A stretch of 64,000 nt of DNA from NCBI GenBank assembly GCA_963791925.1, contig CAWBUA010000003.1, positions 296,604-360,603 of the forward strand. The letters are read 5' to 3'. The position numbers were made by a program, and so were the translations under genes. Shown here piece by piece: positions 8,659 through 52,772 of this stretch. Source of the stretch: an uncultured Alphaproteobacteria bacterium. GTDB taxonomy: Bacteria; Pseudomonadota; Alphaproteobacteria; Rhizobiales; Xanthobacteraceae. The stretch's first letter is position 1, and each line of letters begins with the position of its first letter. The notes under the pieces are model-generated. The model had not been told where the DNA came from, searched no databases, and worked only from the letters and a program-made list of their open reading frames with translations.

Positions 8659-8668
8659 GGATCGGCTG

Positions 8669-9463: not shown

Positions 9464-9485
9464 TGCATGATCGCGGGGTAAGCTG

Positions 9486-30596: not shown

Positions 30597-31454
30597 CTAA
30601 ATCACCTCCTTCTTCAGTTGCAGGTTGGGATGCCCGACACGCTCCCATACGTCGTCAAGGAGAGAGAGGAGCGGTTCGGGATGTTTCTCGAACGAGCCGA
30701 GCGAAGGGATCGCCCGGTAGAGCAAGTGGTAGGACTTGGGCTGGGATGTGCCGTTCTGCTCGGCGATGGTGAAGAATAATTTCTTGATGTTTTCCAGGTG
30801 AGGCCTGCTGGTCGTCACTGTGAGGATGAAAGGCTGAGGGATGCCCCATAGCTTTTCTGTCGTCTTATTGAAGATGATGTCGCGGTAGCAAAGCAGTTTG
30901 CGGAGATAGGAATTGAGTTCGAGATTGTGGATGAGCAGATTTTCGGTATTGCGGTCGGCTTCGAGAAGAAAGTGGGCGTCGCCAATTGCGAAAACGGCAT
31001 CCGGCTCGATGGGTTTGCTGGCCTTCTGCGTGCCCCATTCGATGTAGCACGGTATCTTCAGCGGCTTCTGACCGAGCACCTCACGATTGGAGCGAAAGGA
31101 CAGACCATTCATTTTTGCGATGGTCTCGAAGGATAGGAGTATGTCGGAGACCATGAGCTGGTGCCAAAATTGCCGGCTGCCGGTCCAGCTGTTCAGTTCG
31201 ATGCCGTGTTGCTCCAACGCCGCGCGGCTTTTGTGCGTCAGTTCATATACGCGGGGCGCGTAGCGCGCGTTCCAACTCTGCTTTTGCTGGTCGGGCCGGC
31301 CGAGATAGCCGCATTTATAAAGTGTGCCCAAGCGGCGATGGACGTTCTGTTTGGAGCCGCCGACGAGCCGATGCAAGAAATTCGCGCGGCCATAGCGAAC
31401 GCGGTTGAGCGCTTTAAAAACGTCTATGTCGCGTGGAGTGATTTGCAACGTCAT
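30597..31454 (-). CDS. Replication-relaxation (Replic_Relax) family-like protein
   Basis: N-terminal winged-helix-like ITPRDIDVFKALNRVRYGRANFLHRLVGG...RRLGTLYKCGYLGR and a later IEPDAVFAIGDAHFLLEADRNTE block (PDa...E.DrgTE pattern). The ORF extends to 31490. Confidence 0.6.
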   Translation of the reverse strand: MTLQITPRDIDVFKALNRVRYGRANFLHRLVGGSKQNVHRRLGTLYKCGYLGRPDQQKQSWNARYAPRVYELTHKSRAALEQHGIELNSWTGSRQFWHQLMVSDILLSFETIAKMNGLSFRSNREVLGQKPLKIPCYIEWGTQKASKPIEPDAVFAIGDAHFLLEADRNTENLLIHNLELNSYLRKLLCYRDIIFNKTTEKLWGIPQPFILTVTTSRPHLENIKKLFFTIAEQNGTSQPKSYHLLYRAIPSLGSFEKHPEPLLSLLDDVWERVGHPNLQLKKEVI

Positions 31455-31557
31455 ACATGAGAGATAAATCCGGCGTCCGGCTTGGGTCAAAGGCGGCTAT
31501 GGCAAGCCGCGGCGTTCGGCGGGCAACGGTGGGCGGCAGTGAGCGCCACAAATAATT

Positions 31558-33867
31558 TTACCATTCTTCGCGGGACTGCTTCTTGTGTTTTGAGGTGTTG
31601 AGTTCGGCGGGCCCGGTTTGCGGAGCGTCAGAGGTTCGGCGATAGAGTATGTGGATGACGCTGCCCCGGGTGCCATCGGTTCGAAACGTGCCATAGTTGG
31701 GAAATCGGATTCGGTAACCCTCGCGCATATTGGCGGGGATCGAAACCTTCAGAGTCTTCCATTCGGTGCCATGTACATTGACCCGTACTTTGGCTGAGTA
31801 GAATCCCCCCTTATCCGCGACATTAGGATTGATATAATTTTCCTCGTACAGCTCGTCGGTCGGAATATCGCGCTTTGCATACCGTGCGCGCATGGTGAGC
31901 ATGAGCGTGTGATACTCGTAGTCACCGATGAGCGGGTATTGCAGCGTATCAGCAAACGTCTGCGTGTCGTCATTGAGCTTGTGGTGGGGAACTGGGAGCA
32001 GCTCCGCGGTTTTGGTTTTAAATTTCACAAACGCGGCAAAGTGCCCCTGGTCAATCGTAGCCAACACATCGGACGGGGTGTTAGGGAAGTAAGCGGAAGC
32101 CATGGGGTCTCCGGTGGTATTGAACAGCTTTATTGCACAGGTATTGAGCGAGGCGCGCACTTTTTCGTCGTCGATTTGTTTTAAAAACTGATGGGCGAAG
32201 GTGAGCGAGATGCGCTTGGATCGGAGTTGGGTAATCATATCGTCGATGTGCCTATCATTGGCGATGACGTAGTGAGCTTCATCGAGGAAGACATAGACTG
32301 GCTTCTTGCCTTTGCGCTGACGGCCGGCATACCAGATGAGTGCAAGAAAAAGGCGCCCAAGAAATTCAGAGCCAAAGGGACTTAAAAGGGTATAGCTATT
32401 GTTGATGCAGATGACTTTGCCGCTATCGAGCAAGTCCGCCATATTGATCCGCGTGTCCTTGCTGGAGAGAATGGGGCCGAGCCATTTGTTGTTTAAAATG
32501 ATACGTAACCGGGCCTGAATCTCCGCGCGGCGTTCGGCATAGCGTGGCCCGTTGAACTCTTTTTCAAAAAAGCGCTGATCTCGCGGGGGTAGCTGAGTGA
32601 TTTCTTTTTGATAAGCCTTCGCGCCGTCAACCACGATGTCCCAAAAGGTCTCCATCGTAGGCTTGGGTACTTTTTCCAGCAGATTGATGATTTGCGTGAA
32701 TGGAATGGATTGATGGGCGGTCAGGCCGGTATTGAAGACCCCAAACAGGTAGTCGAGAAATTCCGATGGGTGGCCAGTGGCGAACGGATTGATGGCGAGA
32801 GGATAGTCGGGCGTCGTTTCCAAAATGATCAGGCGGTCTTTGATGGCCGCGAGACGATGAAATGAGCTGAATAAATCACCTTTCGAATCAAGAATGATGA
32901 TAGTGGCGTCCTGCTCCAGGCGGTTGAGTATGAGGTGACGCAAAAGATTGGTTTTGCCGGCGCCGGATGCGGCCACAATCCAGCACGCCTCGAACCAGCG
33001 GTCCTCGGGGATATCGAAGGGGATGTCTACGGATTGATTAGAAATCTTGTGCCGGTGTGGGAAATAGGGAGAATAGAAAAAAGAGATTTCCCAGGCCTTG
33101 GTGTCCTGACGCACCTGCTTGTGCTGCTTGGCGTGGCGCTCTTTCCGTACTTTCCACAAGGACAAGTCTAGTTGCTGAAAGTCCTGCTTTCGGGTCCGTT
33201 CCCCGGCTTCGTGCCGACGCTTGCGGTCGCGCCAATCGGCCTTGTCCCATTTGTCATCTACGGGTTCGGATTCGGTGAAATAATCCGGATAAAAGATTGG
33301 CTCGGGCTCATCGAATTCGTCCCAGCAAGGGGGAAGGAATAAATTGCGGTGGGGGAAAATGCCGTGTTTGGCGAGCTGTTCGCAGGCCTCGGCAATCGGG
33401 GCGTTGAGGGCGTTTGGGATTTCGGCAAAGTCAGGAGCAAAATCGTCGGCGGCGAGAAGCGCGCGGGTGACTGAGAACAACGGCGAAGAGCGAACGTTTA
33501 GTGCTGTTCGTGCATGGGCCGGAAATCCCTTGGTGCACTCAACGAGGCTTTTAAGGAACGTTCTGAGAAATGTCTTATACGTTTCGGTTGGGTCTACGAG
33601 TTTGAGTAAATGTCGCTGCTGGTCGGTATCTGGCAAGTCGGCGGGAAACTCATCAGCATAAATATCCCCGATGGTTTCGATGAGCTTAGCAAGAAACTGT
33701 TTAGGCAGTATCAGATAGTCATACAACGGCGCTGCCTCCTGGAGATAAAGGTCCAAGAGACTTTCTTGAAGCCGCCGACGGGAATACGGCGCAAGGGCCG
33801 TACGCCATAGAGCACGGTTAAGCTCCAGTTCATAGACTTTGCGGCGTGCGGGATCGAGTACAGTCAT
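31558..33867 (-). CDS. FtsK/HerA/VirD4-superfamily P-loop ATPase (coupling-protein-like), 769 aa
   Basis: Walker A AASGAGKTN, Walker B PVYVFLDEAHYV, and downstream LTFAHQFLKQI. The C-terminal roughly 90 aa is a beta-rich extension (KVSIPANMREGYRIRFPNYG). Confidence 0.7.
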   Translation of the reverse strand: MTVLDPARRKVYELELNRALWRTALAPYSRRRLQESLLDLYLQEAAPLYDYLILPKQFLAKLIETIGDIYADEFPADLPDTDQQRHLLKLVDPTETYKTFLRTFLKSLVECTKGFPAHARTALNVRSSPLFSVTRALLAADDFAPDFAEIPNALNAPIAEACEQLAKHGIFPHRNLFLPPCWDEFDEPEPIFYPDYFTESEPVDDKWDKADWRDRKRRHEAGERTRKQDFQQLDLSLWKVRKERHAKQHKQVRQDTKAWEISFFYSPYFPHRHKISNQSVDIPFDIPEDRWFEACWIVAASGAGKTNLLRHLILNRLEQDATIIILDSKGDLFSSFHRLAAIKDRLIILETTPDYPLAINPFATGHPSEFLDYLFGVFNTGLTAHQSIPFTQIINLLEKVPKPTMETFWDIVVDGAKAYQKEITQLPPRDQRFFEKEFNGPRYAERRAEIQARLRIILNNKWLGPILSSKDTRINMADLLDSGKVICINNSYTLLSPFGSEFLGRLFLALIWYAGRQRKGKKPVYVFLDEAHYVIANDRHIDDMITQLRSKRISLTFAHQFLKQIDDEKVRASLNTCAIKLFNTTGDPMASAYFPNTPSDVLATIDQGHFAAFVKFKTKTAELLPVPHHKLNDDTQTFADTLQYPLIGDYEYHTLMLTMRARYAKRDIPTDELYEENYINPNVADKGGFYSAKVRVNVHGTEWKTLKVSIPANMREGYRIRFPNYGTFRTDGTRGSVIHILYRRTSDAPQTGPAELNTSKHKKQSREEW

Positions 33868-38746: not shown

Positions 38747-39556
38747 ATGGATGCGGTTGTTGCGAAAGAGAAAGCCATCAGAGGGCTAGTTGAAACTGCT
38801 GTTCGCTCTTACGCATCCGGGTTCGAAGCGCGCCACGTGTCCCAGAAGGATGATCCGGACGGTGTCATCAACATGAAGGTGCATAACCCTTTCATCGCCG
38901 CCTTGGGAGCTGAGGTGCAATACTATTCGTCGCTGGTGCGTTCCTTGGACAGCTCGCTCGGTGATATGTTGGAGGGGCTCGCGGTGTCCATCGCGCAACT
39001 CTCGTACCAGGTTAGCCGAGAAGTTGAGGGATATCTGAGCGATAAGCAGACGGGAAAGATTGCGCGGCTTTTGGAGGAATACAAAAGGCGGGTGAAGCGA
39101 CCGGAAGTGAGTGACTACGCCCTTCTGATCGACAAGGGGGCAGACAGCGTGCGTAAAGTACGACACGACAGCGATTATTATTTGAAGGATGAAGAGACTG
39201 GCCGGCACTATTTGATTGAACTAAAAATTGGTGGTGACCTCGACAATAAAAAGGCGCGCGCAGAAAAAGAGGCATTGCTCGAACAATACGCCATCCTGGT
39301 GAACACGCTTGGCACGCCGGAGAAAGTCGCGGTTCGATTTGCTACAGCCTATAACCGCTTCGGGGAAGGGCAGCCGTGGGAGCAAGGGCGAGTGAAACAG
39401 TATTTCGCTCCGGAAGAGTTGCTGATTGGGAAGGAATTTTGGGACTTTGTTTGTAAGTCACCGAAAGGATATGAGGTAGTATTAGCTGAGTACAAGGCGC
39501 ACGCCGGTTTGATCGTTCAAGCTCTTAACAACGTGAAGGCTGCTTATTTGAACTAA
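38747..39556 (+). CDS. Putative type II restriction endonuclease (PD-(D/E)xK; possibly TdeIII-like)
   Basis: 269 aa, 11 nt upstream of the DNA methyltransferase gene. Candidate catalytic motif HDSDYYL...YLIELKIGGDLDNKK (D...ExK). The family name is tentative. Confidence 0.55.
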   Translation: MDAVVAKEKAIRGLVETAVRSYASGFEARHVSQKDDPDGVINMKVHNPFIAALGAEVQYYSSLVRSLDSSLGDMLEGLAVSIAQLSYQVSREVEGYLSDKQTGKIARLLEEYKRRVKRPEVSDYALLIDKGADSVRKVRHDSDYYLKDEETGRHYLIELKIGGDLDNKKARAEKEALLEQYAILVNTLGTPEKVAVRFATAYNRFGEGQPWEQGRVKQYFAPEELLIGKEFWDFVCKSPKGYEVVLAEYKAHAGLIVQALNNVKAAYLN

Positions 39557-39567
39557 TTAAAACATCT

Positions 39568-40377
39568 ATGGACGAAGTGGGGGCAATTTATACCGCCGAT
39601 AGTTTCAAAAAAATCAAAGAGGTTCCCGATCACTCCATCGATGTGATTCTCACTGACCCTCCCTACAATCTAGGTCAATATTCGACCGGTAACTTGAAAA
39701 TGAAGTGGCGCGGCGATTTTAATAATGACATTGCCGAGTGGGACAAGCAGACGTTTACCCCTGGCGAATGGGTCAATGAATTCAAGCGTATTCTAAAACC
39801 AACCGGCAACCTATTTGCCTTCACGAGCTATAATCTCCTGGGCAAATGGCATGAAGCATTTGATCCAGAATTCGATACGTTTCAGTTTATGGTGTGGCAC
39901 AAAACAAATCCGGCGCCGAAATTGAGGAGGGCAGGATTTCTAAATAGTTGCGAGCTGATCGTGTGCGCCTGGAACAAGGGACATACGTGGAATTTCGGTA
40001 GACAGAACGAGATGCACAACTTTATCCAAACGCCAATTTGCATGGGAAGAGAGAGACTAAAAGCTCCAAAGCACCCCACGCAGAAGCCGGTCAAAGTGCT
40101 CGACCACTTACTGAAGCTGGGCTCAAAGGAGGGTGATCTTGTGTTTGACCCATTTATGGGAGTTGGGTCATCCGGCGTCGCGGCTCTTAATATGAAACGG
40201 CGCTTCCTCGGCTTCGACACCGATCCTACTTATGTGAATGCCGCCGGCAAGCGCTTCGAAGATGTGTGTGGGGCGACGGTAGTGCCGCTCAAACGCGGGC
40301 AGCCACAGCCATTTTTGCTGACGCCGACGCCAATCAAAGTAGACAAGCTAAGGCAGTTTTTTGCCGTAGCAGCGTGA
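39568..40377 (+). CDS. DNA methyltransferase, N6-adenine/N4-cytosine beta class (N6_N4_Mtase)
   Basis: Catalytic ILTDPPYNLG near the N-terminus and the AdoMet motif DLVFDPFMGVGSSGVAA near the C-terminus (beta-class order). HPTQKP block also present. Confidence 0.9.
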   Translation: MDEVGAIYTADSFKKIKEVPDHSIDVILTDPPYNLGQYSTGNLKMKWRGDFNNDIAEWDKQTFTPGEWVNEFKRILKPTGNLFAFTSYNLLGKWHEAFDPEFDTFQFMVWHKTNPAPKLRRAGFLNSCELIVCAWNKGHTWNFGRQNEMHNFIQTPICMGRERLKAPKHPTQKPVKVLDHLLKLGSKEGDLVFDPFMGVGSSGVAALNMKRRFLGFDTDPTYVNAAGKRFEDVCGATVVPLKRGQPQPFLLTPTPIKVDKLRQFFAVAA

Positions 40378-40530: not shown

Positions 40531-42030
40531 TCACATAGCTTTCGCAGAGAGTTCTAACAGCTTGGCGCGCTGGGCCGGATTGGTGACGTGCTTCGCAACG
40601 AGGTTCGTGACTTCGTTCAAGGCGACCGCAGCCGCGCCGCGTTTCGGGCTCACTTTAGTGAGCTTCACCTTGAGCTTGTCGAGGCTCGATTCCAATTGAG
40701 TGCGAAGAGCGGCCGTGGCCACATGTTTAGTCTTAGTCCTTGCTCGCAACACCGCGGATTTAAATCGCGAAAGCTCCGCTCGATCGAACGGTCGCTTTTG
40801 CTTGAGGCGGGTGCTCGTCTCGGTGATGACATTTCTCACTACCTGCTCGGAGTTGCGGGAAACTGAGGCGGATCGGCAGCGCTGGGTTATTTTCCCGGCG
40901 AGGGGGCCGAGCTGGACGAGTAGATTGTAATAGTGGTGATTTACCTCGAAATTGTCTCTGCGGGCATTGGGGACAATGCGGGGGTCGCAGATATGGATTT
41001 CCCCGATGCTCCAACCGTTAAATCGCGGCTCTTTGAAAATTTCGTCGAAAAGCCCTGCGTCGCCGACCTGTAGATCGCCGACGCGGGCTCTCAAGCCGCG
41101 TACCCCGAGAGCTGGCAGGATGCTACGGACATATTCGTGGTGAGCTATCCACGCGATGGCGCCTGTATCTCCGTCGACGTTGGCAAACTCTAGGAATTCG
41201 ATGTTCCCGATGCGCAGCTTATGTGCCGTTGCCGGGAAGATCATCTCATTTCGGAGGGGTCGGAACACTCGATCTCCCGCAACGACAAGATTGAGTGGCG
41301 TCCTGTTTACTTTGGAAGCCAAACCTTCTTCAATCTGGGCTCCGAAGCTGAATTCTGGAGAGAATGGCAGAGGAGCTACCTGGGAAAGGTAGTGCGCTAT
41401 GACGCGTTCATTCAGCAGGAGATCGTTTCGTAGACGCGCGATTTCTTTAAGGCGAACCTCAAAAAAATGATCGTCGGAATCATTTGCCGTTTCGTGAGAT
41501 ACCGACACAGTGTCGGCAATTATCCGACGAACGTCCCCTCCAAATGCAGCGTCGGTAAGCCGCTCGCGCAAGCCTCGACAATCCCACGAAACTGAAACGA
41601 TCTTTTTCTCTCCGGGCGCCTTGGTTCTGAATTCAAGTTCGCGGCAGTGTGCGAGTCCGGACAGACGACCAACTCCCCGAAATCCCCTAGCTTGCGAACC
41701 GCGCTTCGGCGACCCCCCAATCGCAACCAAAGTGGAGACGGCGTCCTGGGCTTTGATGCCGGCGCCGTTGTCTCGGATGGAAACGCTCCGGCCGCCCTGG
41801 TCAAAAGTAATTTCGACTCGCCCGTGCTCTCTGGGCGTGAGTACCCCTTTTTTTTTGGCTTGATCGATGGAATCAGCGGAATTCTGGATGTACTCCCGAT
41901 AGATCGTAGTGGGGGAGACATACATTCCCGATGTAACAATCTCTATAACGTCTTTTCCGACCCGGATGTCATCTATGTCGATCTGCTCGCGGGGGGGCAC
42001 GCGATTATGTAAGACGCTCGATTCCATCAC
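40531..42030 (-). CDS. GHKL-superfamily ATPase (HATPase_c_3 / MORC-like)
   Basis: N box EYIQNSADS, G1 box IRDNGAGI, G2 box ARGFRGVGRLSG. ATG at 42027 shares one nucleotide with the radical-SAM stop codon (TGATG). Confidence 0.8.
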   Translation of the reverse strand: MMESSVLHNRVPPREQIDIDDIRVGKDVIEIVTSGMYVSPTTIYREYIQNSADSIDQAKKKGVLTPREHGRVEITFDQGGRSVSIRDNGAGIKAQDAVSTLVAIGGSPKRGSQARGFRGVGRLSGLAHCRELEFRTKAPGEKKIVSVSWDCRGLRERLTDAAFGGDVRRIIADTVSVSHETANDSDDHFFEVRLKEIARLRNDLLLNERVIAHYLSQVAPLPFSPEFSFGAQIEEGLASKVNRTPLNLVVAGDRVFRPLRNEMIFPATAHKLRIGNIEFLEFANVDGDTGAIAWIAHHEYVRSILPALGVRGLRARVGDLQVGDAGLFDEIFKEPRFNGWSIGEIHICDPRIVPNARRDNFEVNHHYYNLLVQLGPLAGKITQRCRSASVSRNSEQVVRNVITETSTRLKQKRPFDRAELSRFKSAVLRARTKTKHVATAALRTQLESSLDKLKVKLTKVSPKRGAAAVALNEVTNLVAKHVTNPAQRAKLLELSAKAM

Positions 42031-43685
42031 GCTGCCTTCCTCTTATTTTTACGCTTGGATGGTATTTGAAGCGAAACAATATCGTCCTCAAGGCCTGCAT
42101 CCTCGACGATTTCTTCCTCAGTCATATTGATTTGCGCGGTCGTTTGTTGTGCAAGCCGCTCCCGTTGTATTTGCCGAATGCGGCTCTCAACTTCGCGGGT
42201 CAGCGGAAAATAGAAGCGCGCGACTTGCTGCATGTTAGGCGGCAGATCGCGGATGTCCCGCGTATACTCCGCTGGGTTTCTTCCGGACAAAAATGCGACA
42301 AGCTCAGTGTGTTCGGCCTGCGACAGTCGGCCGAGCTGTGCGCGGTATTCATCCAGCTCGCCCCGGCCCTCATAGCGCTCGTAGTATTGGCGATTGAAGA
42401 TCATATGGTGAGGTCGTGCCAGTATGCCTTCAAATTCATCGTGTGTGGCTCCAAACGCCGCTTTGAAGAACTCGGGCTCTCCGGAGACAACTCCGTGTGT
42501 CGCCTGAAGGACAAGCTGTACCGATCGGAGGAAGTATCTATTCCACTTCGGTCCGATATGTGACCGAACCGGCAAGTCGGTCGGCTGATACCGCATCGGG
42601 AACGAGTAAATGCGGATGGCCAGTTCCTCGTTGAGCCTCACGTTCAAATACATGCGCTCGAAGAGGTCTGCCGGTGTGTCGTGAAAATTATAAAGCATAT
42701 AGTTCGAGAGGTCGTTTAATCCGAACTCATGGGCATATCGAACTGCGGTTTCATAAGGGCCTTTGAGCCCAAGGTGGTCGAACGCGATGCGCAGCGGACT
42801 GAGACAGATTGAGGACAGCTCGCGCAAGTACATTCTGTCCTTGCACAGAATCCGAGCGTCCACTCCCTGATTAAAGTCCACGCGACGCAGAGCCCCGACG
42901 CGCTCTCCTTCGCGTTTGAGTTTGGCTCCGCGGATAAATCCAAGATCGCGGATTTCGGCGATGATTTCCTTGAAGCGCGCGGAAGCGACGACGTTGTTGT
43001 CCATCAACATGAGGTCGCGGCGCGGGCCGTACATGCGGTCAACGCCCTGGACGAATTCAGTGAGCGGGGTTGCGTCGCGCTGTGCTCCTTCCAGTTTGGG
43101 TACGCCGCAGAAGTGACACTTGCGAATACAGCCGCGCGACGCATACGCGAAATACGCGTCTCTGACGGGATACTTGTAGTCTATCTGATCAAGAATGCTG
43201 TAATCCGGGATAAGGTCTTCGATGGGAGAGCTGGTCACGTCGTCCGCATAAAAGTCGCCGTCGAAGGCGTCGAGCTGAAGCGATTTGGCCGGCGGGCCGT
43301 CTAGGAGGCCGCGGATAAAGCGGACGCCCCGCCACCGCGATTCTTGAAGGAACCGGTCATGCATGAGCGAGGCGGCGATGCCGCCCACGAATACGCGCTG
43401 CGACTGCCCGTGCACGGCATCGATGGCAAAATCGATCGTTTCAGCGATGGACTGATACTCGAATGAGAAGAGGGTCGTGATGTATATCCGGTCCCACGGG
43501 TGATTCGTGAGCCGGGGGTGCGTGCCCTTTGCGAAGGTGACGTGGTCGCGCTTGCCGGCTGGCCCGTGATACTGGGCAATTTTCATCAATCCCAGAGGCG
43601 GGTACTTGTTCTTATAGCCCGGCTCCAGCAGCAGAATTCGCTTATTTGGCATGGACTTCGACCCTAGCTTCGCCGCATCATACAT
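42027..43685 (-). CDS. Radical SAM protein with N-terminal Rossmann/B12-binding-like domain
   Basis: CIRKCHFC, i.e. CxxxCxxC at Cys186/190/193 (43107-43130). The N-terminal KRILLLEPGYKNKYPPLGLMKIAQY resembles class-B radical-SAM N-domains. Alternative start MPNKR at 43652. Confidence 0.8.
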   Translation of the reverse strand: MYDAAKLGSKSMPNKRILLLEPGYKNKYPPLGLMKIAQYHGPAGKRDHVTFAKGTHPRLTNHPWDRIYITTLFSFEYQSIAETIDFAIDAVHGQSQRVFVGGIAASLMHDRFLQESRWRGVRFIRGLLDGPPAKSLQLDAFDGDFYADDVTSSPIEDLIPDYSILDQIDYKYPVRDAYFAYASRGCIRKCHFCGVPKLEGAQRDATPLTEFVQGVDRMYGPRRDLMLMDNNVVASARFKEIIAEIRDLGFIRGAKLKREGERVGALRRVDFNQGVDARILCKDRMYLRELSSICLSPLRIAFDHLGLKGPYETAVRYAHEFGLNDLSNYMLYNFHDTPADLFERMYLNVRLNEELAIRIYSFPMRYQPTDLPVRSHIGPKWNRYFLRSVQLVLQATHGVVSGEPEFFKAAFGATHDEFEGILARPHHMIFNRQYYERYEGRGELDEYRAQLGRLSQAEHTELVAFLSGRNPAEYTRDIRDLPPNMQQVARFYFPLTREVESRIRQIQRERLAQQTTAQINMTEEEIVEDAGLEDDIVSLQIPSKRKNKRKAA

Positions 43686-43795: not shown

Positions 43796-45208
43796 ATGGG
43801 ACGAAGAAAACGGCCTAGATTTCGAAAAAAAGAGGCCCCCGGGCGAGCTGTACCAAAGGGCCAAACATTGACCGGGCTAATATCCGGCGATGCTTTGAAG
43901 CCTGTCTACGCTGTGAAAGCCAAAGCGGTCGACGAAAAGACAGTCTCCGCTTCAAGGCCGGAAGCTCTAGCTGCCAAAATCGAGGCTGAGAAGGCTGATG
44001 GGTGGCACGTTCTTCGTAACAGTGCAAAATCGGCTCGCCTCGCCAAAGACAAGCCCATCGACCGCCAACTTGAAGATGACGTCTGGTCACTTTTATATCG
44101 AATGGGCTTCAAGGAACTGAACTTTGATCGCAATTTTTCCGTCAAAATCAACGATGGAACGGCAGAGCGGCAGCTCGACGTGTTCGCGAAAGACGACGAG
44201 ACTGTGTTCATCGTGGAATGCACTCACGCGCGGGAAGTCGGCACAAAATCCGTCAAGACTCTTCTAGAGAAAATCGCTGCAATCCGTCCGGAGGTCATTC
44301 AGGCGATTCAAAAGCACTATGGACGTGAAAGCAAGCTCAAGATCAAATTTACAATTGCGACTCGCAATATCGAATGGCGCGGCGCAGATAGAACTTTGGC
44401 TGAGAGCTCCGGCGTACCAATCATAACTGAAGAAGACCTAACGTACTTCAGTCGTCTGACCAGCATACTAAAGCACGCGGCTCGCTTTCAATTCCTCGGT
44501 CGATACTTTGAGGGGGAGAAGGTGGAAGGGCTGAGATCGAAGGTGCCCGCGACGCAAGGGCGCATCGGTAATAAGACTTTCTATAACTTCCTCATCTCGC
44601 CACACGATCTGCTGCGCATTTCTTACATCAGTCACATGGCCAAGGCTTCCAACGACGATCTGGAAACGTACCAACGGATGGTGAAGCCTTCTCGATTGGC
44701 CGCGATTGGTCAATATATCGACGACGGTGGCACCTTTCCAACAAACATTGTCATAAATTTAAAACGAGAAAATCTTCATTTCGATGTCAAAGAAAAATTC
44801 GGCGACACGGCGACCGGGATTCTTAGCCTGCCAGGACTGTATGGGTCAGCGTGGATCGTCGATGGGCAACATCGGCTTTATGGCTATGCCTACGCAACTC
44901 GCAAAGTCGAGGAAGACCGCTCGGTCGTCCCCGTACTAGCTTATGAGAACTTGCCCGTCCGCGAAGAAATTGAGCTCTTCGTGGACATCAATACTAAGCA
45001 AGTAAAAGTGAGTCGAAATCTAGTCAACGAAATTGTTTCCAGTCTGAATGTCGATGATCCAGATGCGAGAAAGCGCCTCGACGCGATGTGCGCACGTGTC
45101 GCACTTCGGCTCGACTCGCATTCGACGTCACCTCTAAAAGATCGAAGTCTTAACGGTGGCCCAGGAGAAGAATCATACCCGCTGTTTGACTCTGACTTCG
45201 CTCGCTGA
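43796..45208 (+). CDS. DGQHR-domain (DndB/ParB-like) protein with N-terminal nuclease-fold-like region, 5' segment truncated by a frameshift
   Basis: WIVDGQHRLYGYAYA (44861-44875), YQRMVKPSRLAAIGQYI, FPTNIVINL. The N-terminal QLDVFAKDDETVFIVECTHA resembles a degenerate PD-(D/E)xK core. The ORF ends in junk after ...STSPLK. Confidence 0.8.
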   Translation: MGRRKRPRFRKKEAPGRAVPKGQTLTGLISGDALKPVYAVKAKAVDEKTVSASRPEALAAKIEAEKADGWHVLRNSAKSARLAKDKPIDRQLEDDVWSLLYRMGFKELNFDRNFSVKINDGTAERQLDVFAKDDETVFIVECTHAREVGTKSVKTLLEKIAAIRPEVIQAIQKHYGRESKLKIKFTIATRNIEWRGADRTLAESSGVPIITEEDLTYFSRLTSILKHAARFQFLGRYFEGEKVEGLRSKVPATQGRIGNKTFYNFLISPHDLLRISYISHMAKASNDDLETYQRMVKPSRLAAIGQYIDDGGTFPTNIVINLKRENLHFDVKEKFGDTATGILSLPGLYGSAWIVDGQHRLYGYAYATRKVEEDRSVVPVLAYENLPVREEIELFVDINTKQVKVSRNLVNEIVSSLNVDDPDARKRLDAMCARVALRLDSHSTSPLKDRSLNGGPGEESYPLFDSDFAR

Positions 45209-46202
45209 TGGCATAGCGGAGAACAATCTTATTGGTTCTCTCTATAGGGCGCAAAAAGGCGGTGTGACGATGCTAGTTGCTGGCCCGCTCAGCGACCCAT
45301 CGGTCGATTCTAAGCTGAGCATGGACAAGGCGGTTGAAACGCTTTCGCGGTACTATGCGCTTTTTGCGAAAGGCCTCGAAAGCCATTGGGCACTCGGAGA
45401 TGATAAAGGCGGATTTCTCGCCACCAACCTCGGTCTTCGCGCCATCACGCAATTGCTTCGGCGCCTAATAGCATTTGTCGAACGGAAGGAAGAGGTGAGC
45501 GCATCGACGCTCGACCCTGAAGATATTGTCGATCGCATTAAGCCTTATGTTGATCCCGTGATTGAATTTTTCCAAACAGCAAATGCAAGTGACATTGCTA
45601 AGTTTCGCAATCGTGGCAGTTCATTACAAAGCGTTGATCAAAACTGCATGCAAATGATGGCGATCATTCACGGCGTAAAAGGGGATACCTTCGATTTAGT
45701 CGAGGTGCGGGATTGGATTCAAAGTCAAGATGCGCAGGGTACCAAGCAAGCTGGGGATATGATTGATGAGATCAACCGAATTATTTTTGCCGATGTTATC
45801 GATAGACTTAAGACAAAGTTTGGCAGCAATGAAAAGGAATGGTGGGTCCAAGGTGTGCCGGCAAAGGTACGCAACGACTGCGACAAGCAGTACAATGAAT
45901 TAAACGGCGAACATGAGAGATGGCAATTTCTTTATCTAATAAGTTATGTTGATATCGTTCTATATAATGATAATTGGGATTTGTTCAAAGAGTACTACGA
46001 CTTCTATGGCGGGGGCAAAAAGGCCGACCGTGTGCGTTGGATCGTGAAACTTAACAAGGCTCGGCAGGTAACGCATCACGCAGAGAAGGGGCCTCTTTCC
46101 AAGGATCAGGTTGAATTCGTACGACGTGTGCACGCCTTGGTCAAAGAGCACATCGAGCAGCGTAATAAGGTGACGCCAAAGCACTGCTACCTTCCGGAAT
46201 GA
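45156..46202 (+). CDS. 3' segment of the same DGQHR gene, a helical region ending in a Swt1-like HEPN-type domain
   Basis: The frame is open from 45138 (KIEVLTVAQEKNHTRCLTLTSLADGI). The C-terminus WWVQGVPAKVRNDCDKQYN...NWDLFKEYY...KLNKARQVTHHAEKG (R-x4-H at 46062-46079) parallels the HEPN end of the 47994..49118 protein. Confidence 0.7.
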   Translation: MAQEKNHTRCLTLTSLADGIAENNLIGSLYRAQKGGVTMLVAGPLSDPSVDSKLSMDKAVETLSRYYALFAKGLESHWALGDDKGGFLATNLGLRAITQLLRRLIAFVERKEEVSASTLDPEDIVDRIKPYVDPVIEFFQTANASDIAKFRNRGSSLQSVDQNCMQMMAIIHGVKGDTFDLVEVRDWIQSQDAQGTKQAGDMIDEINRIIFADVIDRLKTKFGSNEKEWWVQGVPAKVRNDCDKQYNELNGEHERWQFLYLISYVDIVLYNDNWDLFKEYYDFYGGGKKADRVRWIVKLNKARQVTHHAEKGPLSKDQVEFVRRVHALVKEHIEQRNKVTPKHCYLPE

Positions 46203-46549: not shown

Positions 46550-47107
46550 TCAGAGTGAGTTGGCGATATATGGAAAGGATGTGATGGAGCGGACGAGTTT
46601 GCGGTTGTGCTCGATGTAGAGGATGGCCTGTTTGAGTTTAGCGCGCACGGCGTCGATGGATTTCAGCGCGTAATTCTTGAAGATTTTCTCGCGGATTTCA
46701 TCCCAGAGATTTTCCTTTGGATTAAGTTCGGGCGAATACGGTGGAAGGTACAAGAGCTTGATATTGTCGGGAAGGGTCAGTTGGCCACAGCGATGGTTGG
46801 GCGCGCCGTCGAGAACCAAAAGGATGTCCTGGCGGGCGAACCTGCGCGCCAGCACGTCGAGGAAGGCCTGAAAGCAGGCGGTGTTCGACGTCGGCATGAT
46901 CAGATAGACGCAAACTCCGTCTTTTGGAGAGACTGCGCCGTACAAATAGATGTATTCGCGAATGAGCTGAGCGGCGACCGCTGGTCTCGTTCCGATCGGC
47001 GCCCAGCATGGCCGTGGCCGATTAATGCGGCCGAAGCGCGCTTCATCGGCGAACATGATGCGCAGATGCCGACCGCGCCTCTTGGCCGCCCGCCGAGCCT
47101 GCCTCAC
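46550..47107 (-). CDS. IS630-family transposase, DDE-domain part (orfB)
   Basis: FADEARFG, LVLDGAPNHRC and YLPPYSPELNPKENLWDEIR form the typical DD(34)E region. The frame is open upstream to 47128, inside the A7 run. Confidence 0.85.
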   Translation of the reverse strand: MRQARRAAKRRGRHLRIMFADEARFGRINRPRPCWAPIGTRPAVAAQLIREYIYLYGAVSPKDGVCVYLIMPTSNTACFQAFLDVLARRFARQDILLVLDGAPNHRCGQLTLPDNIKLLYLPPYSPELNPKENLWDEIREKIFKNYALKSIDAVRAKLKQAILYIEHNRKLVRSITSFPYIANSL

Positions 47108-47595
47108 TGCATCAGGAAAGCCGTTTTTTTAAAAGCTTTTTGCGCCGCGAGGTCGCGCTTGGGATGAAACGGCCGCGGCATCAGCTTGCGCCAGCCCTGC
47201 CGGTGCAAGAGATTGTACACCGTGCTGTCGCTGGTCACATGCCCGATCGCCTGTTCATAGGCCGCTTTGAGATCGTGAATGTTCAACATCTCGCCGGCGC
47301 CGGCAGCTTTGGCAAAGCGCGCCAGCAAGGCCTTTTCCGTCGCCACGGTCATGTTCTCGTGCTTGCGTCCGCCATTCGGCTTGGGCTTAAGCGCCTTGAT
47401 GCCACCGTGAGCATAGGCCATGTGCGCGCGGTTCACCGTGCTCAGCGATACACCCATCGCTGCCGCAATCGCGCCCTGCGTCATCCCGCTCTCGCGTAAC
47501 AGCACCATTTGAATGCGCTGGCGCTGTCCGGCCGTGATCTTCCATCGTAGCGCGGTTTTGAGCCGCCGAACCTCGGCTTTGCTGCATTCGACCAT
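47104..47595 (-). CDS. IS630-family transposase, HTH part (orfA)
   Basis: RQRIQMVLLRESGMTQGAIAAAMGVSLSTVNR (HTH) and VYNLLHRQGWRKL. ATG at 47595 lies inside the element. orfB is in the -1 frame. Confidence 0.8.
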   Translation of the reverse strand: MVECSKAEVRRLKTALRWKITAGQRQRIQMVLLRESGMTQGAIAAAMGVSLSTVNRAHMAYAHGGIKALKPKPNGGRKHENMTVATEKALLARFAKAAGAGEMLNIHDLKAAYEQAIGHVTSDSTVYNLLHRQGWRKLMPRPFHPKRDLAAQKAFKKTAFLMQ

Positions 47596-47715
47596 CTGTT
47601 TTCCCCGAATCAGATAGCCAAGCGAATCACACTCAGCGCCTCGAAAACAATTCCCCTGCCTTCCGCTCTCAGCGCAGAAGACTGCCCGATTCAATCCGTT
47701 ATGGAGCTGGTATAA

Positions 47716-47893
47716 GTTGGCAATTTTGTTAAATCCCAATGAGCCCGATACTGTAACCCTTCTCGGTGTGATCGAAAAGCTAGATCAGAGCCGCACTGAT
47801 CAGACGTTCACGGCGGCTGAAGCGGAAATGCTGACCGTGGCGCGCGCTTTGCTCAAGCGAGAATGGGTTCGCATTAAAGAAGAGCTTAAGTGA
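47716..47893 (+). pseudogene. 3' part of the IS630-split gene
   Basis: KLAILLNPNEPDTVTLLGVIEKLDQSRTDQTFTAAEAEMLTVARALLKREWVRIKEELK-stop, in frame with 46229-46536 after IS removal. Confidence 0.6.
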
Positions 47894-47993: not shown

Positions 47994-49118
47994 CTACGTC
48001 GCTTCGAGGGTCTTGCTGAGTACTCGTTCAAACCACATAATTCCGGCCTCGCCCTCTGTCCGCACAATATCATCGACGAACCGGCTATGACGAAGGGCAT
48101 TTCGCAATGCGGCTATTTGTCCGAATTTGATAGTGAGGGCCTCCTGAGTGCCGAAGCGGTCGACGAACCTCGGCCAAAGCATTTTGTTTATGAGCGCCAT
48201 CTCAAGTTCACGGAGATCACAAAATTCGAGCTTGTTGGGTAGGGATTTGTAGCGCGCGGGGTCAAAGGCGGCATTGCGCTTCATCTCATCAGCTATTCGC
48301 CGTTGAGCCCGTTCGTTGATTTCGGATGGTAGTTGTTTTGGATCGCTTCCGATTGTCGAGGTAATAAGGATGCGCAGTTGCAGTTCTATGGCCTCAAGCC
48401 TGGCGTCGAGCGCCTTGATCTTGGATCGCGAAGAAAATAGTTCATCAGCGCGCTCAAACCTGTCTATGGCATTGGTAGTCTCGGTGGGACGAAGGACATA
48501 CAGGGGGCAATGCTGTTCGTTCTGTTCGGGCAACAGAATCATCGTGAACCCGCAGCGCTTAAGTATTGCCTCGCCGTCGCGAGATTGTGCGAAGGCGGTA
48601 TACGTGCGCTGCTCCAGCGGCTCGTAATGCTTACGAAGAAATTCCTTCATTTTGAGAAGAAGCACTTCACCCGCAACTAGCGAGCTAAACCGCCTTTGGT
48701 GTGGGTTCCTGAGGATGGTCGCAATGTGGAGGTACGTTGCAGACGAAGTGCCAGCCGCCGGCACAATGTGATCGAGTGTGAGTGACCGTTCGCTAATCGC
48801 TCCCGAAATGACGCCCACGCCGGCAGTGGCCGTAAGTGGAAAAATATCGAAAAAGCCTATTAGTTGATTGTTTTCATCAACGACCGATGTGAACACTAAC
48901 GAGTTTTGCCTCCGCCATTCTTTATAGTCCGCGTATGTAATGGCGTGCTTGTCTAGTTCGCGACGCACAATGTTATTGGCAGTTGAGGCGATGGACTCGT
49001 CATCCCGCGAACCAAAATGAACAACTTCCAACGCACCGTCAATCGCGAAAAGCAAAGAACCGTCAGCGTAATCGGTACGCTTCCTCTGATATATTCGTCT
49101 AAAGAGGTTCGTAAACAT
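47994..49118 (-). CDS. GNAT-like N-terminal domain fused to a Swt1-like HEPN domain
   Basis: The C-terminus LPSEINERAQRRI...LEFCDLRELEMALINKMLWPRFVDRF...GQIAALRNALRHS contains the R-N-x3-H HEPN motif (48087-48104). The N-terminal half ends in the GNAT-like ...AFAQSRDGEAILKRCGFTMI. Confidence 0.65.
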   Translation of the reverse strand: MFTNLFRRIYQRKRTDYADGSLLFAIDGALEVVHFGSRDDESIASTANNIVRRELDKHAITYADYKEWRRQNSLVFTSVVDENNQLIGFFDIFPLTATAGVGVISGAISERSLTLDHIVPAAGTSSATYLHIATILRNPHQRRFSSLVAGEVLLLKMKEFLRKHYEPLEQRTYTAFAQSRDGEAILKRCGFTMILLPEQNEQHCPLYVLRPTETTNAIDRFERADELFSSRSKIKALDARLEAIELQLRILITSTIGSDPKQLPSEINERAQRRIADEMKRNAAFDPARYKSLPNKLEFCDLRELEMALINKMLWPRFVDRFGTQEALTIKFGQIAALRNALRHSRFVDDIVRTEGEAGIMWFERVLSKTLEAT

Positions 49119-49140
49119 TCAGACGTGCTCGTGGCCTACA

Positions 49141-49656
49141 TTAGTGAAGAGTGCGGACCATATATTGGGCGGTGTCGCCGTATGAACGCAGCTTCTCAGT
49201 CAGGTCCACCCGCTGGACGATCTCGAAGCCGCATTTCATCCAGAGGGGATGGGTGTTGTATACCGAGACCAAAGCGAGCGCAGGAATGAGGCATTCTCGT
49301 GCAGCGTCGGCAACAATCTCTATAAACCGCTGAGCAGCACCGTGTCCTCTCGCAGAAGGCATGACGACTACGTCATGTATGAAAATGCAGTCCGGCTGAG
49401 AGGGCAGTTCCTTTAGATAGGTATCCAGTGGGGGAATCTTATTGAGATGCCAGGGATGAGAAATTCCGTAGCCGACGGTCTCGCCGGAATAGGTCAGGAC
49501 CCGACAGCCCGAGGGGAATAGACCGAGCTTCTCCGCAAAGACTTCGGGCCGCTCCGGCAGGCTAGTATGTATACCATTCCCAATGGCATCTATTGCCTTC
49601 AAATCCTCGGTAGTCGCCTGGCGCCATTGGGGGGTGGTCTGATCATTCATAGACAA
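49141..49656 (-). CDS. GNAT-family N-acetyltransferase
   Basis: IHDVVVMPSARGHGAAQRFIEIV (motif A Q/RxxGxG/A) and NTHPLWMKCGFEIV. Lies 22 nt upstream of the GNAT-HEPN gene. Confidence 0.8.
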   Translation of the reverse strand: MSMNDQTTPQWRQATTEDLKAIDAIGNGIHTSLPERPEVFAEKLGLFPSGCRVLTYSGETVGYGISHPWHLNKIPPLDTYLKELPSQPDCIFIHDVVVMPSARGHGAAQRFIEIVADAARECLIPALALVSVYNTHPLWMKCGFEIVQRVDLTEKLRSYGDTAQYMVRTLH

Positions 49657-49766: not shown

Positions 49767-51594
49767 ATGACTTCCCACACCGAGAATATATTATCCAGCC
49801 AAGGGGGTGGGAGGCACAGCATGGCGATCACCGATCAAGCTATCGATCAGGTCTTTTCCGATTTGAAAAGGACTTGCGGCGGAGTACGCAATGACTACTT
49901 CGCTCTTTTGTATTTGATGCAGGAGTTTGGCTTAGAGCGCGACCTGGCGATTTAGCAAGTGGCGTTCGGGGGGAATGATTATGGCATTGATGGTTTTCAT
50001 TTCGACGCTTTGAAACGAAACTTCTATCTCTTTCAGTTCAAATATTCCACGTCATATGAACAATTCAAGCCGTCATTCAAACGACTGGCGGACTTTGGTA
50101 TGGAGCGAATTTTTGGGGCGCGCACCCAGGACCAACATCAGAACCAGTTGTTACTTCAAATAAAAAGTTGTCTTCTCGAAAATGAAGCAATTATAGACCG
50201 GGTATATATTCACTTTGTCTTTACAGGGGACCCGGCGGAGGCTGAGCGTAGCCAGGTGCTCGATAAGCTGCGCGAGAATCTGGAAGATAAAAAATATCTC
50301 ATAGACCAGCGTTTCGACCGCCCCGTGACGCTGGTGATCGAGTTTCGTTCCGCCCGAACCCGAAAGGTCGGAGCGGCCACCCATTTACGTAAGACGCATA
50401 GCTACCCGATTGAACTCGACAAAACAATAACCCGCGCTGGTCCGAATGGTGAGACAATGACGGTGGGCTTCATCCGAACTCGTTGATCTCAATGCTATGT
50501 ATAGAGAAATGGGAGCGCGCTTCTTTGAGCGCAATATTCGCGCTGCGCTAGCAGAGGATAAAGCTGTCAATCGATCTATCCAGCAGTCGTTCAAAGCTAT
50601 TGTCTTGGAAGGCAAGGAGGAAGCCAGTATCTTCGCATTCAATCATAACGGTGTTACTTTGTTCGCGGAAGACCTGCACCAAGTGAATGGCTCATTTAAT
50701 AAAATTACAGAACCGCGTGTTTTGAATGGCGCGCAGACGGTTACGACGTTTGCACGATTTATGAAGGCCAATGAGGGAAATAGCAGATTAGCAGAGCGTA
50801 AAGACGCCTTAAACGATCTTAGTGTGATGTGCCGCATCATCACAAATGCCGTGCCGGAATTTGTCACCACCGTCACAATTAATAACAACCGTCAAAATCC
50901 GGTTGACCCTTGGAACCTCCACGCGAATGATATGATTTAACTGGAACTACAAGATAAATTTCGGGACGAGCTTGGCATCTATTATGAACGTCAGGAGAAG
51001 GCATTTGAAAATTTGAGCGATGAGGAGCTTTGGGAGCAACAAATCACCGAGCATCGTGCGCTGGAATTAACGCGGGTTGCGCGAACATTCCTCGTAAGTG
51101 ATGGCGACATCGATAAACTTGCACGATTTAGGGAAGTATTTGAGGACGACCGGATTTACAGCCAGGTGTTTAGTGACAATAGGCTGAGAGCAGATTTGAG
51201 AAAGATTGTCCTTTGCTACAAGGTGCAGTTCAGACTGGGGCGCCTGAGTTACGACATTGTAGATAAGGGAGCCAACAAATATGCCTACGTTCTTCGCTCG
51301 CGCAATTTGCTGTGGGCCTTACTCTGTCAGGCAATTCTTAACGACCCAAAGCTGGAAGAGCGCGCTGAGAAGTTCGGCAAGGGCCTCAGCTTAGAGGCAC
51401 AGTACACAGAGTACCTTTCGGGCTTAGCCACAACACGCTGCCGCTTCGTTCTTGCGGACCTTGTTGCGGACAAAACGTATGCTGGAAAGAGTGCGGAAGG
51501 AAATTTCAGCTTTATGCGGACTAACGCAGCGTACAAGAGGGCGATGGAAATCGCCTATAAGCGCTGGCACTGGGTGGAAAAGCGTTTGAGGTAA
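49767..51594 (+). pseudogene. AIPR-family abortive-infection gene, decayed (two in-frame stops and one frameshift)
   Basis: Four consecutive ORFs read as one AIPR-like protein: GGNDYGIDGFHF...LFQFKYS and later FNHNGVTLFAEDL...VLNGAQTVTTF. TAG at 49953-49955 and TAA at 50938-50940 are in frame. There is a +1 shift near 50474-50476. Confidence 0.75.
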
Positions 51595-51635: not shown

Positions 51636-52772
51636 TCATGCCGCTCGGGCGGTGTCAGGTACGTCTTCGGCGGCAGGGAGCTTCGAAAGATAATTCTCCC
51701 ATTTTTCAATGGCCGCCCGCATCTCTGGCAAATAGGTATAAACGTCGTACGTGCGCTCCATATCTGTTCGGGCTGAGATGTGATTGACGAGCCGCTCGGC
51801 TATGTGGGGTGCTACGCCCAACTTGCCGAGGTTGGTGCGGAAGGTCCGGCGAATGTCGTGCAGCGTCCAGCTGGTGACACCGCTTATTCGATCGAGCGTG
51901 GCCTTGGCTTTGCCCCAGCCGCAGAATGGCTTGTTGGGCTTATTCCTGGCGGGGAACAGAAGTCCTATATCGGCTTGCGCCGCGAGTATCTCTTTCGCCC
52001 GTGCGCTGATTGGAAGGGTATGCGCCTGCTTGTTTTTGGTGATCTCGCCGGGGAGCGTAATGGCGTCAGTCCCGATCCAGGCCCGGTTGAGCGCGGCGGT
52101 TTCCGTTTCGCGCTGACCTAGGAGAATCAGCAATCGGACCATCGTTTGAAAATGTCGCGGGAGTTTCTCGGAGTTGCACGCGTCCCAAATCTTTTTCAAT
52201 TCAACATCGGTCAGAATGCGGGACCGGCGTTTGCGCTCATAGGCTGATATGCCAACTACAGGATTGTCGGTGATGTAGCGGCGCCCCATGCACCAATTGA
52301 AAAAAATAATGGCAACGGTGCGGGCATGATTATGCTCGGCCGGCACGTCTTTCAATCTTTGGAGCCGGTGCGCGATCTGCGCGTGAGTTACATCCCTCAA
52401 CTGACCCTTGAAGGAGAAATGTCGTTTGAGGTGTCGCGTGTAGTCGGCGAGGGTGCGCGGTCTGGCGCTCTTGGCTTTCTCCGCGAGGAAAAGCTGCACC
52501 GCCTCGGAATAGGGGAGGGACTGCGGACGCAGCCGGCCAAGGGTGAATTCGGCGAGCAGCCGTTTTGCTTCAGCGCGCGCTTCCTGGAGCGAAATGACGG
52601 GGTATCGGCCTAAGGAAATAAAGCGACGGTCCGACCCAACCTGCAAAAAGAAGGTGCGTGTATCGCCCTGAGATACACGGACTCCAAATCCATGCAGGGT
52701 GTCATCGCAGAGTTTGATCTGACCCTTGGCAGGCACAGGTGTCGCTCGGATCGCAACGTCGGTGAGACGCAT
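51636..52772 (-). CDS. P4-type tyrosine integrase (DUF4102 arm-binding N-domain plus catalytic domain)
   Basis: N-terminus MRLTDVAIRATPVPAKGQIKLCDDTLHGFGVRVSQGDTRTFFLQ is typical of P4-like integrases. C-terminus HDIRRTFRTNLGKLG...LVNH...YDVYTY carries the catalytic residues. Lies 143 nt from the tRNA-derived repeat. Confidence 0.9.
   Translation of the reverse strand: MRLTDVAIRATPVPAKGQIKLCDDTLHGFGVRVSQGDTRTFFLQVGSDRRFISLGRYPVISLQEARAEAKRLLAEFTLGRLRPQSLPYSEAVQLFLAEKAKSARPRTLADYTRHLKRHFSFKGQLRDVTHAQIAHRLQRLKDVPAEHNHARTVAIIFFNWCMGRRYITDNPVVGISAYERKRRSRILTDVELKKIWDACNSEKLPRHFQTMVRLLILLGQRETETAALNRAWIGTDAITLPGEITKNKQAHTLPISARAKEILAAQADIGLLFPARNKPNKPFCGWGKAKATLDRISGVTSWTLHDIRRTFRTNLGKLGVAPHIAERLVNHISARTDMERTYDVYTYLPEMRAAIEKWENYLSKLPAAEDVPDTARAA

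Follow-up and report, generated by a model that had tools for sequence, protein, structure and literature searches.

A small GNAT acetyltransferase paired with a GNAT-like/HEPN-like protein: a candidate two-gene abortive-infection module with exchangeable effectors

Two adjoining genes in an alphaproteobacterial genomic island

We analyzed a window of 64,000 nucleotides (nt) from an uncultured alphaproteobacterium of the family Xanthobacteraceae (GenBank assembly GCA_963791925.1, contig CAWBUA010000003.1, positions 296,604 to 360,603 of the forward strand); all positions given here are those of this whole stretch. The subject of this report is a pair of adjoining minus-strand open reading frames (ORFs), the first encoding a small GNAT acetyltransferase and the second a protein of 374 amino acids (aa) in which a GNAT-like domain is followed by an all-helical, HEPN-like domain (Table 1). 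A sequence-only reading of this DNA had described the two as 171- and 374-aa proteins separated by 22 nt, and both are present on the minus strand as it described. It had also assigned a HEPN signature to positions 48087 to 48104. In the translation, RNALRH occupies exactly those positions, and the full LRNALRHS spans 48084 to 48107. The small GNAT ORF is 171 aa long when read from a TTG at 49656 and 169 aa when read from an ATG at 49650. The ATG is the likely start, since the called protein (P0226) and its homologs begin there, at a length of 169 aa. Promoter and terminator scans around the pair gave no signal beyond the level of shuffled sequence.

Table 1. Positions of the gene pair and its features in the window
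Feature	Position	Strand	Basis or remark
Small canonical GNAT acetyltransferase	49141..49656	-	Pfam Acetyltransf_1; proposed regulator or sensor partner
Motif A of small GNAT, acetyl-CoA pyrophosphate-binding loop R-G-H-G-A-A	49333..49350	-	Sequence reading
22-nt spacer, GNAT stop to effector start	49119..49140	-	ORF coordinates
374-aa effector gene, GNAT-like plus HEPN-like domains	47994..49118	-	~80 homologs; AlphaFold model
Degenerate GNAT-fold domain, aa ~21 to 210; putative adaptor or sensor domain common to HEPN, 2TM, and TIR variants	48489..49058	-	Foldseek
Loop after strand beta-4 of GNAT-like domain, N-P-H-Q-R-R-F-S	48684..48707	-	Model secondary structure and family consensus
C-terminal all-helical HEPN-like domain, aa ~226 to 370; predicted RNase effector	48009..48443	-	AlphaFold; PADLOC PDC-M34B
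E245-x3-R249 (ELQLR), upstream acidic/basic HEPN motif	48372..48386	-	Alignment conservation
R339-N340-A-L-R343-H344, predicted HEPN RNase Rx4H catalytic motif	48087..48104	-	Alignment conservation
Weak terminator-like hairpin, ~190 nt 3' of effector stop	47783..47801	-	Consensus scan only; within shuffle expectation

The upstream gene encodes a canonical GNAT

The upstream protein had been called a GNAT from its sequence, and a profile search agreed, with a match to Pfam Acetyltransf_1 well above the cutoff (34.8 bits against 20.7; E = 2.3e-8). Its motif A, R-G-H-G-A-A, fits the canonical acetyl-CoA loop Q/R-x-x-G-x-G/A, and across the family (40 homologs) the R never varies and the G after it is nearly invariant. 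The invariant residues in the family alignment, which covers several phyla, include W9, H28, E33, Y61, D93, R101, and Y157, and the substrate-side helices (LPERPEVFxEK) are almost invariant across phyla. With a canonical motif A and this many residues fixed across phyla, the small GNAT is probably an active enzyme. The family comprises 74 clusters, about the same size as the effector family. When the family profile was searched against PDB, the nearest solved relatives were Ard1/SSO0209 and polyamine acetyltransferases, and TacT, AtaT, and KacT were not among the matches at E <= 0.01. An NCBIfam search with the small GNAT returned only weak, unrelated matches, and PADLOC returned none. The analogy drawn earlier to GNAT toxins that acetylate tRNA found no backing in the NCBIfam and PDB searches.

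The 374-aa protein begins with a degenerate GNAT fold

Homologs of the 374-aa protein number ~80 and come mostly from soil metagenomes and from metagenome-assembled genomes (MAGs) of Hyphomicrobiales/Bradyrhizobium. The protein has no Pfam or NCBIfam match, no Pfam domain was found on full-length homologs either, and a PDB sequence search with the protein gave nothing relevant. An AlphaFold model built with 51 homologs had a mean predicted local distance difference test score (pLDDT) of 86. Comparison of residues ~21 to 210 of this model with PDB structures by Foldseek gave 26 matches at E <= 1e-3, all of them GNATs, including Ard1, Naa50, and SpeG (E, 4e-5 to 1e-3; probability, 1.0; target TM-score, 0.44 to 0.67). 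The N-terminal half of the protein had been suspected to be GNAT-like, and it does have a GNAT fold by this structural comparison, without a sequence-profile match.

At the site of motif A, the loop of this domain has Q-x-x-F-S in place of Q/R-x-x-G-x-G/A, the family consensus being NPRQxxFSP. Because the noncanonical loop N-P-x-Q-x-x-F-S is found throughout the family, we regard the domain as divergent and possibly noncatalytic. Other positions are strictly kept; K57, W68, R69, G88-F-F-D91, E110, and Q141 are among the residues that are invariant across architectures.

The C-terminal domain has the hallmarks of a HEPN domain

Residues ~226 to 370, modeled alone, are all-helical (pLDDT, 92; predicted template modeling score, 0.84). 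The model has helices at 226 to 256, 265 to 281, 325 to 344, and 350 to 368 and a helical insert at 287 to 322. R-N-x3-H closes helix 325-344, after which come a short loop and helix 350-368. R339, N340, R343, H344, and R346 are invariant in the homologs, including proteins that have only this C-terminal domain. A broader set of 56 distant relatives keeps N340 without exception, and R339 and H344 in at least 90% of its members. Upstream, R249 does not vary in any of the alignments that take in proteins with the C-terminal domain only, and E245 is invariant or at least 90% conserved. HEPN domains have been defined by an Rx4-6H motif that ends helix 3 and has a polar N, D, or H next to its R, together with E-x3-[KR] farther upstream and a helix 2/3 insert (PMC3710099). 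Measured against that definition, the motif, the polar residue, the E-x3-[KR], and the insert all match in the C-terminal domain of the 374-aa protein. The acidic residue has been placed in helix 2 (PMC3710099), and E245 lies in the first long helix of our model. On the grounds of motif, topology, and architecture, this is very probably a HEPN domain of the Swt1/Abi2 clade.

Several profile matches in the same direction stayed below threshold, and the only Pfam families that the domain reached in this way were three of HEPN type. HEPN_Swt1 matched 1 of 56 relatives (E = 8.4e-4), HEPN_SAV2148 matched the family consensus (E = 0.014), HEPN_RiboL-PSP matched 3 of 39 relatives (E = 0.05), and the Csx1 C terminus in PADLOC matched at E = 0.02. 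The top TM-score for the modeled domain, 0.46/0.54, was to 2q00 and was nonsignificant (probability, 0.35); 2q00 is listed as a PaREP1 HEPN structure (PMC3710099). PADLOC model PDC-M34B was matched by the 374-aa protein (E = 5.7e-4), by the consensus of the C-terminal domain family (E = 1.2e-11), and by protein P0057 (E = 4.9e-7), in each case over the C-terminal domain only.

A profile of the C-terminal domain retrieved 952 representative clusters at 50% identity, and in almost every full-length protein listed it stands at the C terminus. Its N-terminal partners include GmrSD_N/DUF262 (15 of 56), BrxL ATPase, HARE-HTH, protein kinase, reverse transcriptase, dynamin, Schlafen/AlbA_2, nucleotide cyclase, Mrr_N, helicase plus Mrr_cat, EVE, and methyltransferase. 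Judged by sequence comparison, the domain is a widespread and promiscuous C-terminal module with a predicted effector role. A HEPN-like family of ~950 clusters is missed by current Pfam models, and better coverage would improve the annotation of defense proteins linked to DUF262/GmrSD, BrxL, Mrr, and kinases.

The conserved unit is the GNAT and the GNAT-like domain, with interchangeable effectors

Homolog look-ups starting from either gene returned the pair every time, the HEPN-type loci being L001 to L011. Where the relatives of the small GNAT were 50 to 55% identical, the second protein was ~280 to 305 aa long and had two N-terminal hydrophobic helices and the GNAT-like domain, without HEPN. 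A profile of the GNAT-like domain retrieved ~40 clusters of this two-transmembrane-helix (2TM)/GNAT-like type, which had no match in PADLOC v2. Another variant of the GNAT-like protein carries a C-terminal TIR domain and was seen in P0338 (Pfam TIR_2, E = 8e-20) and in locus L025.

A scan of 185,579 species-representative genomes found only 13 loci. Their hosts were Hyphomicrobiales, a MAG labeled Actinomycetes, Terriglobia, three Verrucomicrobiota lineages, "Candidatus Roizmanbacteria," and "Candidatus Electronema." Four of the loci are of the HEPN type, seven of the 2TM type, and one of the TIR type, with one unclear. The small GNAT lies directly upstream on the same strand in 13 of 13, as it does in all other loci examined. 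Among the TM- and TIR-type genome loci, all those with a clear start have the effector start overlapping the GNAT stop by 4 to 8 nt (15 nt is possible in L027), which indicates coupled translation. Comparative evidence of this kind indicates that the conserved unit is the small GNAT together with the GNAT-like domain, and that HEPN, 2TM, and TIR effectors are interchangeable on it. The sequence-only reading had taken GNAT plus HEPN to be the defining combination, which no longer holds, the HEPN domain being exchangeable for 2TM or TIR. Its proposed check, conservation of the two genes as neighbors, came out in its favor, since the pair was found in every locus examined, with the GNAT truncated in L001/L002. 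The effector swapping makes the pair more interesting than first described.

In that truncated lineage (L001/L002, identical to L017), the small GNAT lacks residues 1 to 76 and only residues 77 to 171 are left (L017 positions 5630 to 5914, equivalent to L001/L002 positions 7687 to 7971). The 371-aa HEPN effector of L017 and its motif are intact beside the truncated GNAT, and the same state was found in two samples. Loci L014 to L016 have an intact GNAT partner and a TM-type effector of only 206 aa (L014 positions 6508 to 7128) in which the match to the GNAT-like domain extends only to about residue 114; this effector appears truncated or decayed.

The pair lies in defense or mobile islands

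What surrounds the pair varies by locus, with genes of conflict and mobility predominating. The neighbors include restriction-modification genes, DruA, GHKL ATPases, SNF2 helicases, nSTAND, Dnd-associated genes, HsdR, DUF3800, Fic, DpnII-MboI, NERD, TIR, DUF4062-WD40/TPR, integrases, and transposases or insertion sequence (IS) elements. The pair is thus found in defense or mobile islands, and the earlier suggestion that it forms an unnamed toxin/antitoxin-like or abortive-infection module agrees well with a conserved pair in such contexts. A Verrucomicrobiae MAG (L030, positions 7524 to 9909) holds the minimal mobile form of the module: an IS1595 transposase, the small GNAT, and a 2TM/GNAT-like effector, inserted between rplU-rpmA and obg. 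An insertion of this kind argues for the two genes as a self-sufficient mobile unit.

The window itself has a low-GC region at ~22000 to 53000, where the GC content is 0.49 to 0.57 in most 2-kb intervals versus ~0.62 outside. Within this island the gene pair sits near a P4-type integrase (51636 to 52772); no tRNA was found at the integrase end. The island also encodes a relaxase (30597 to 31490), a TraG/HerA-like ATPase (31558 to 33867), and a TdeIII restriction enzyme with an N6/N4 methylase (38747 to 40377), and it includes the frameshifted DGQHR gene, the IS630 element, and the decayed AIPR/AbiU gene described below. With a length of ~30 kb, the island looks like an integrative mobilizable element with defense cargo.

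A proposed mechanism and the points against it

We propose, at a probability of roughly 0.55, that the pair is an autonomous, mobile module of the abortive-infection/toxin-antitoxin (TA) type in which the GNAT controls the effector through the GNAT-like domain. The proposal builds on what was observed: the identities of the domains, the conserved motifs, the strict pairing of the genes, the swapping of effectors, and the mobile or defense context. From these we infer RNase activity, toxicity, the direction of control (inhibitor versus activator), and the trigger, and the function given to the module rests entirely on comparative inference. The first gene would provide a catalytically competent small GNAT as regulator or sensor, and the second gene an effector whose degenerate GNAT-fold domain couples to it. 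The Swt1/Abi2-type HEPN at the C terminus would act as an RNase that needs no metal. As long as the cell is at rest, the GNAT would hold the effector off by forming a heterodimer with the GNAT-like domain, by acetylating that domain (for example, at the invariant K57), or by both. Phage infection would perturb the resting state, upon which the effector would self-associate, its HEPN domains would cut RNA, and growth would stop. In the sister versions, the same GNAT and GNAT-like core would act through a membrane module of two helices or through a TIR NADase.

The placement of control in the shared domain follows from a single control point being common to three unrelated effectors. In TA systems, the regulator is usually the small gene in front and the toxin the larger gene behind it, and we favor the GNAT as inhibitor because the coupled arrangement of a small upstream and a large downstream gene has this TA pattern. 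A further and more tentative suggestion, which we hold to be possible but doubtful, is that acetylation is the control currency of an unrecognized immune module. Either the small GNAT would make an acetylated small molecule that the pseudo-GNAT reads, turning on the HEPN, TIR, or membrane effector, or the GNAT would continuously acetylate the conserved domain of the effector (for example, at K57), which would be released upon loss of acetyl-CoA or phage inhibition of the GNAT. If true, this would be the first defense system built on a GNAT/pseudo-GNAT sensor pair. Confirmation of the module would add a two-gene abortive-infection/TA-type family whose sensing and regulatory core joins an acetyltransferase to a degenerate version of the same fold, and would make acetylation or acetyl-CoA status a possible immune switch. 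The HEPN, 2TM, and TIR versions on one core amount to a built-in natural experiment.

A number of results weigh against the proposed module. Curated HEPN profiles, HEPN_Swt1 included, had no match to the 374-aa protein itself. Foldseek searches with the model of its C-terminal domain gave no PDB match at E <= 1e-3 and nothing significant in the viral BFVD library, and neither the profile nor the family consensus of the domain retrieved anything relevant from PDB sequences. The HEPN assignment of the sequence-only reading stands on its hallmarks, namely, E-x3-R, R-N-x3-H, and a helical model, but did not gain an above-threshold curated HEPN profile or a significant structure match. An hhalign comparison of the small GNAT family with the GNAT-like domain family aligned 13 residues and was not significant, so the two are not seen as recent paralogs. 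In a look-up of RNA sequencing data for cotranscription of the pair, the region was found in DNA-type runs only and in no RNA runs. The lineage with the truncated GNAT is awkward for an indispensable antitoxin, unless its promoter was lost too, and we take it as weak evidence. Given the rarity of the pair (13 of 185,579 species representatives), enrichment in defense islands was judged by inspection and not by statistics.

Alternative explanations

The GNAT could instead be an activator. Upon infection, it would acetylate a small molecule or peptide, and the degenerate GNAT-like domain, having kept a ligand pocket and lost catalysis, would bind the product and turn the effector on, much as cyclic nucleotides do in CBASS, Pycsar, and type III CRISPR. 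Such a relay would suit the finding of 2TM, TIR, and nuclease effectors on one conserved sensor domain, which is a second-messenger pattern. The near-invariant LPERPEVFxEK helices of the small GNAT suggest one conserved substrate, and the many invariant polar residues of the GNAT-like domain suit a binding pocket. The locus with a truncated GNAT and an intact effector would also be tolerated, a weak point as the promoter may be lost as well. However, a stoichiometric complex would account no less well for genes that overlap and are coupled in translation, and defense systems are not known to use an acetylated messenger, which counts against the relay. On balance, we consider it rather unlikely. 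The small GNAT could also be a toxin that acetylates aminoacyl-tRNA in the manner of TacT, AtaT, and KacT, with the 374-aa protein as an antitoxin acting through a pseudo-GNAT heterodimer. The two genes are tightly coupled, and GNAT toxins act as dimers that an inactive GNAT-fold partner could in principle poison. Yet the gene order is reversed relative to the usual antitoxin-first order, there is no DUF1778/ribbon-helix-helix (RHH) partner, and neither NCBIfam nor PDB sequence searches matched the GNAT to TacT/AtaT toxins, the best matches being Ard1 and polyamine acetyltransferases. The second protein, moreover, bears effector modules (TIR, 2TM, and HEPN-like), unlike antitoxins. We judge this reading to be very unlikely.

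The pair might also be part of a larger system that includes a radical-SAM-like 552-aa protein (42027 to 43685) and a GHKL ATPase (40531 to 42030). The 552-aa and 499-aa genes come directly after the pair in L009 to L011, 189 nt after it on the same strand in L009/L010 at 92/84% identity, and they are found a few genes from the pair in L005 at 81/67% identity. The same minus-strand order is found in the window, with an IS630 element and a DGQHR gene in between. They are absent, though, from the HEPN-type loci L001, L003, L006, L008, and L018 and from all TM and TIR loci, and in L030 the GNAT pair is alone beside an IS element, which makes a larger system improbable. An obligatory four-gene system was rejected, as the window, L005, and L009 to L011 are the only places where these two genes occur with the pair; they may be a separate, uncharacterized defense pair that travels with the GNAT module. 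Finally, these could be ordinary metabolic or RNA-processing genes with no role in conflict, the helical domain being a noncatalytic binding domain. That no curated HEPN profile reached threshold would be expected of such genes. The patchy spread over at least five phyla in only 13 species representatives, the neighborhoods of mobile and defense genes, the strict invariance of R-N-x3-H and E-x3-R, and the TIR and TM alternatives all speak against them, and this explanation retains hardly any plausibility.

Comparison with known systems

The C-terminal domain resembles the Swt1/Abi2-clade HEPN effectors of restriction-modification, abortive-infection, and defense proteins in being an all-helical C-terminal module with E-x3-R and R-N-x3-H. 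Published Swt1-like HEPN fusions include ParB/DUF262, SNF2, and others (PMC3710099). The relatives found here have the same kinds of fusion partners (DUF262/ParB-like, SNF2/helicase plus Mrr, and others), but the curated models, applied at their cutoffs, miss the domain. The terms "GNAT" and "acetyltransferase" have 0 occurrences in the HEPN survey, which thus describes no GNAT fusion or partner gene (PMC3710099).

The HEPN-MNT (HepT-MntA) type VII TA system is likewise made of two genes, a small upstream enzyme being proposed to control a HEPN RNase, possibly by covalent modification. It differs in that the partner here is an Acetyltransf_1 protein in every locus and not a minimal nucleotidyltransferase (MNT), the HEPN is fused to a GNAT-like domain, and the effector is exchangeable. 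Membership in HEPN-MNT was rejected for want of an MNT partner. The type II GNAT-RHH/DUF1778 systems (TacAT, AtaRT, and KacAT) also have a small GNAT in a two-gene mobile module, but the present loci have a GNAT without a match to those toxins, a different gene order, and a different type of partner. No ORF or Pfam match for an RHH/DUF1778 antitoxin was found at the loci, where the only conserved neighbor is the 374-aa protein. With no such partner and no NCBIfam or PDB match, a TacT/AtaT-like toxin was set aside as unlikely.

Pycsar, CBASS, and Thoeris share with the present module a small enzyme gene and an effector gene in which 2TM, TIR, or nuclease modules are attached to a conserved sensor domain. 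Here, in contrast, the enzyme is an acetyltransferase and not a CD-NTase, nucleotide cyclase, or TIR, and the putative sensor is a degenerate copy of the fold of the enzyme. The proposed workings of the module resemble those of HEPN-MNT, where an enzyme partner controls a HEPN toxin, and those of two-gene signaling systems with modular effectors, but the defining partner of each is absent here. In the PADLOC candidate system PDC-M34, component B is homologous to the C-terminal domain, and only the HEPN-like domain matches; a full-text literature search found no mention of PDC-M34. Tandem-GNAT enzymes with one inactive domain have both in one chain, whereas in the present pair they are on separate chains, with a predicted toxic effector attached to the degenerate one. 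Mycothiol synthase MshD reportedly combines an active GNAT with a degenerate GNAT-fold module that probably serves in binding or scaffolding. A full-text literature search also found no description of a GNAT paired with a HEPN, TIR, or TM protein, and the mentions of GNAT in papers on BREX and Dnd concern other architectures. The new part is the GNAT/pseudo-GNAT control core; a modular conflict system of the abortive-infection/TA type is of a known kind.

Neighboring genes in the window

The 552-aa and 499-aa genes occupy 40531 to 43685 on the minus strand. The 552-aa protein has a CIRKCHFC motif (CX3CX2C, radical-SAM-type) and no Pfam match, and it is followed by the 499-aa GHKL/HATPase_c_3 ATPase. 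A DGQHR/DndB/DpdB-like gene lies on the plus strand at 43796 to 46202 as two ORFs, 43796 to 45208 and 45156 to 46202, which are in different frames and overlap by 53 nt; the split is probably a frameshift. The C-terminal ORF matches the PADLOC PDC-M34B model at E = 9.6e-5. The sequence-only reading had matched the layout of the HEPN-like domain to the C terminus of this DGQHR protein. A remote relationship holds through the shared PDC-M34B matches only, whereas direct comparisons of the domain family with the C-terminal ORF were marginal in a local hmmsearch (5.7 bits) or not significant in hhalign.

An IS630-type element (46550 to 47739, minus strand), made of a helix-turn-helix ORF and a DDE_3 ORF, lies between the GNAT-HEPN pair and the DGQHR gene. 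On the other side of the pair is a decayed defense gene, an AIPR/AbiU-like abortive-infection gene (49767 to 51594, plus strand) that in-frame stops and a frameshift have split into four or more ORFs. It is oriented divergently to the GNAT pair, which is intact. A protein with a TPS (two-partner secretion) domain and a 1061-aa LVIVD/GLUG-repeat protein are encoded on the plus strand at 20871 to 26251, on the left margin of the low-GC region.

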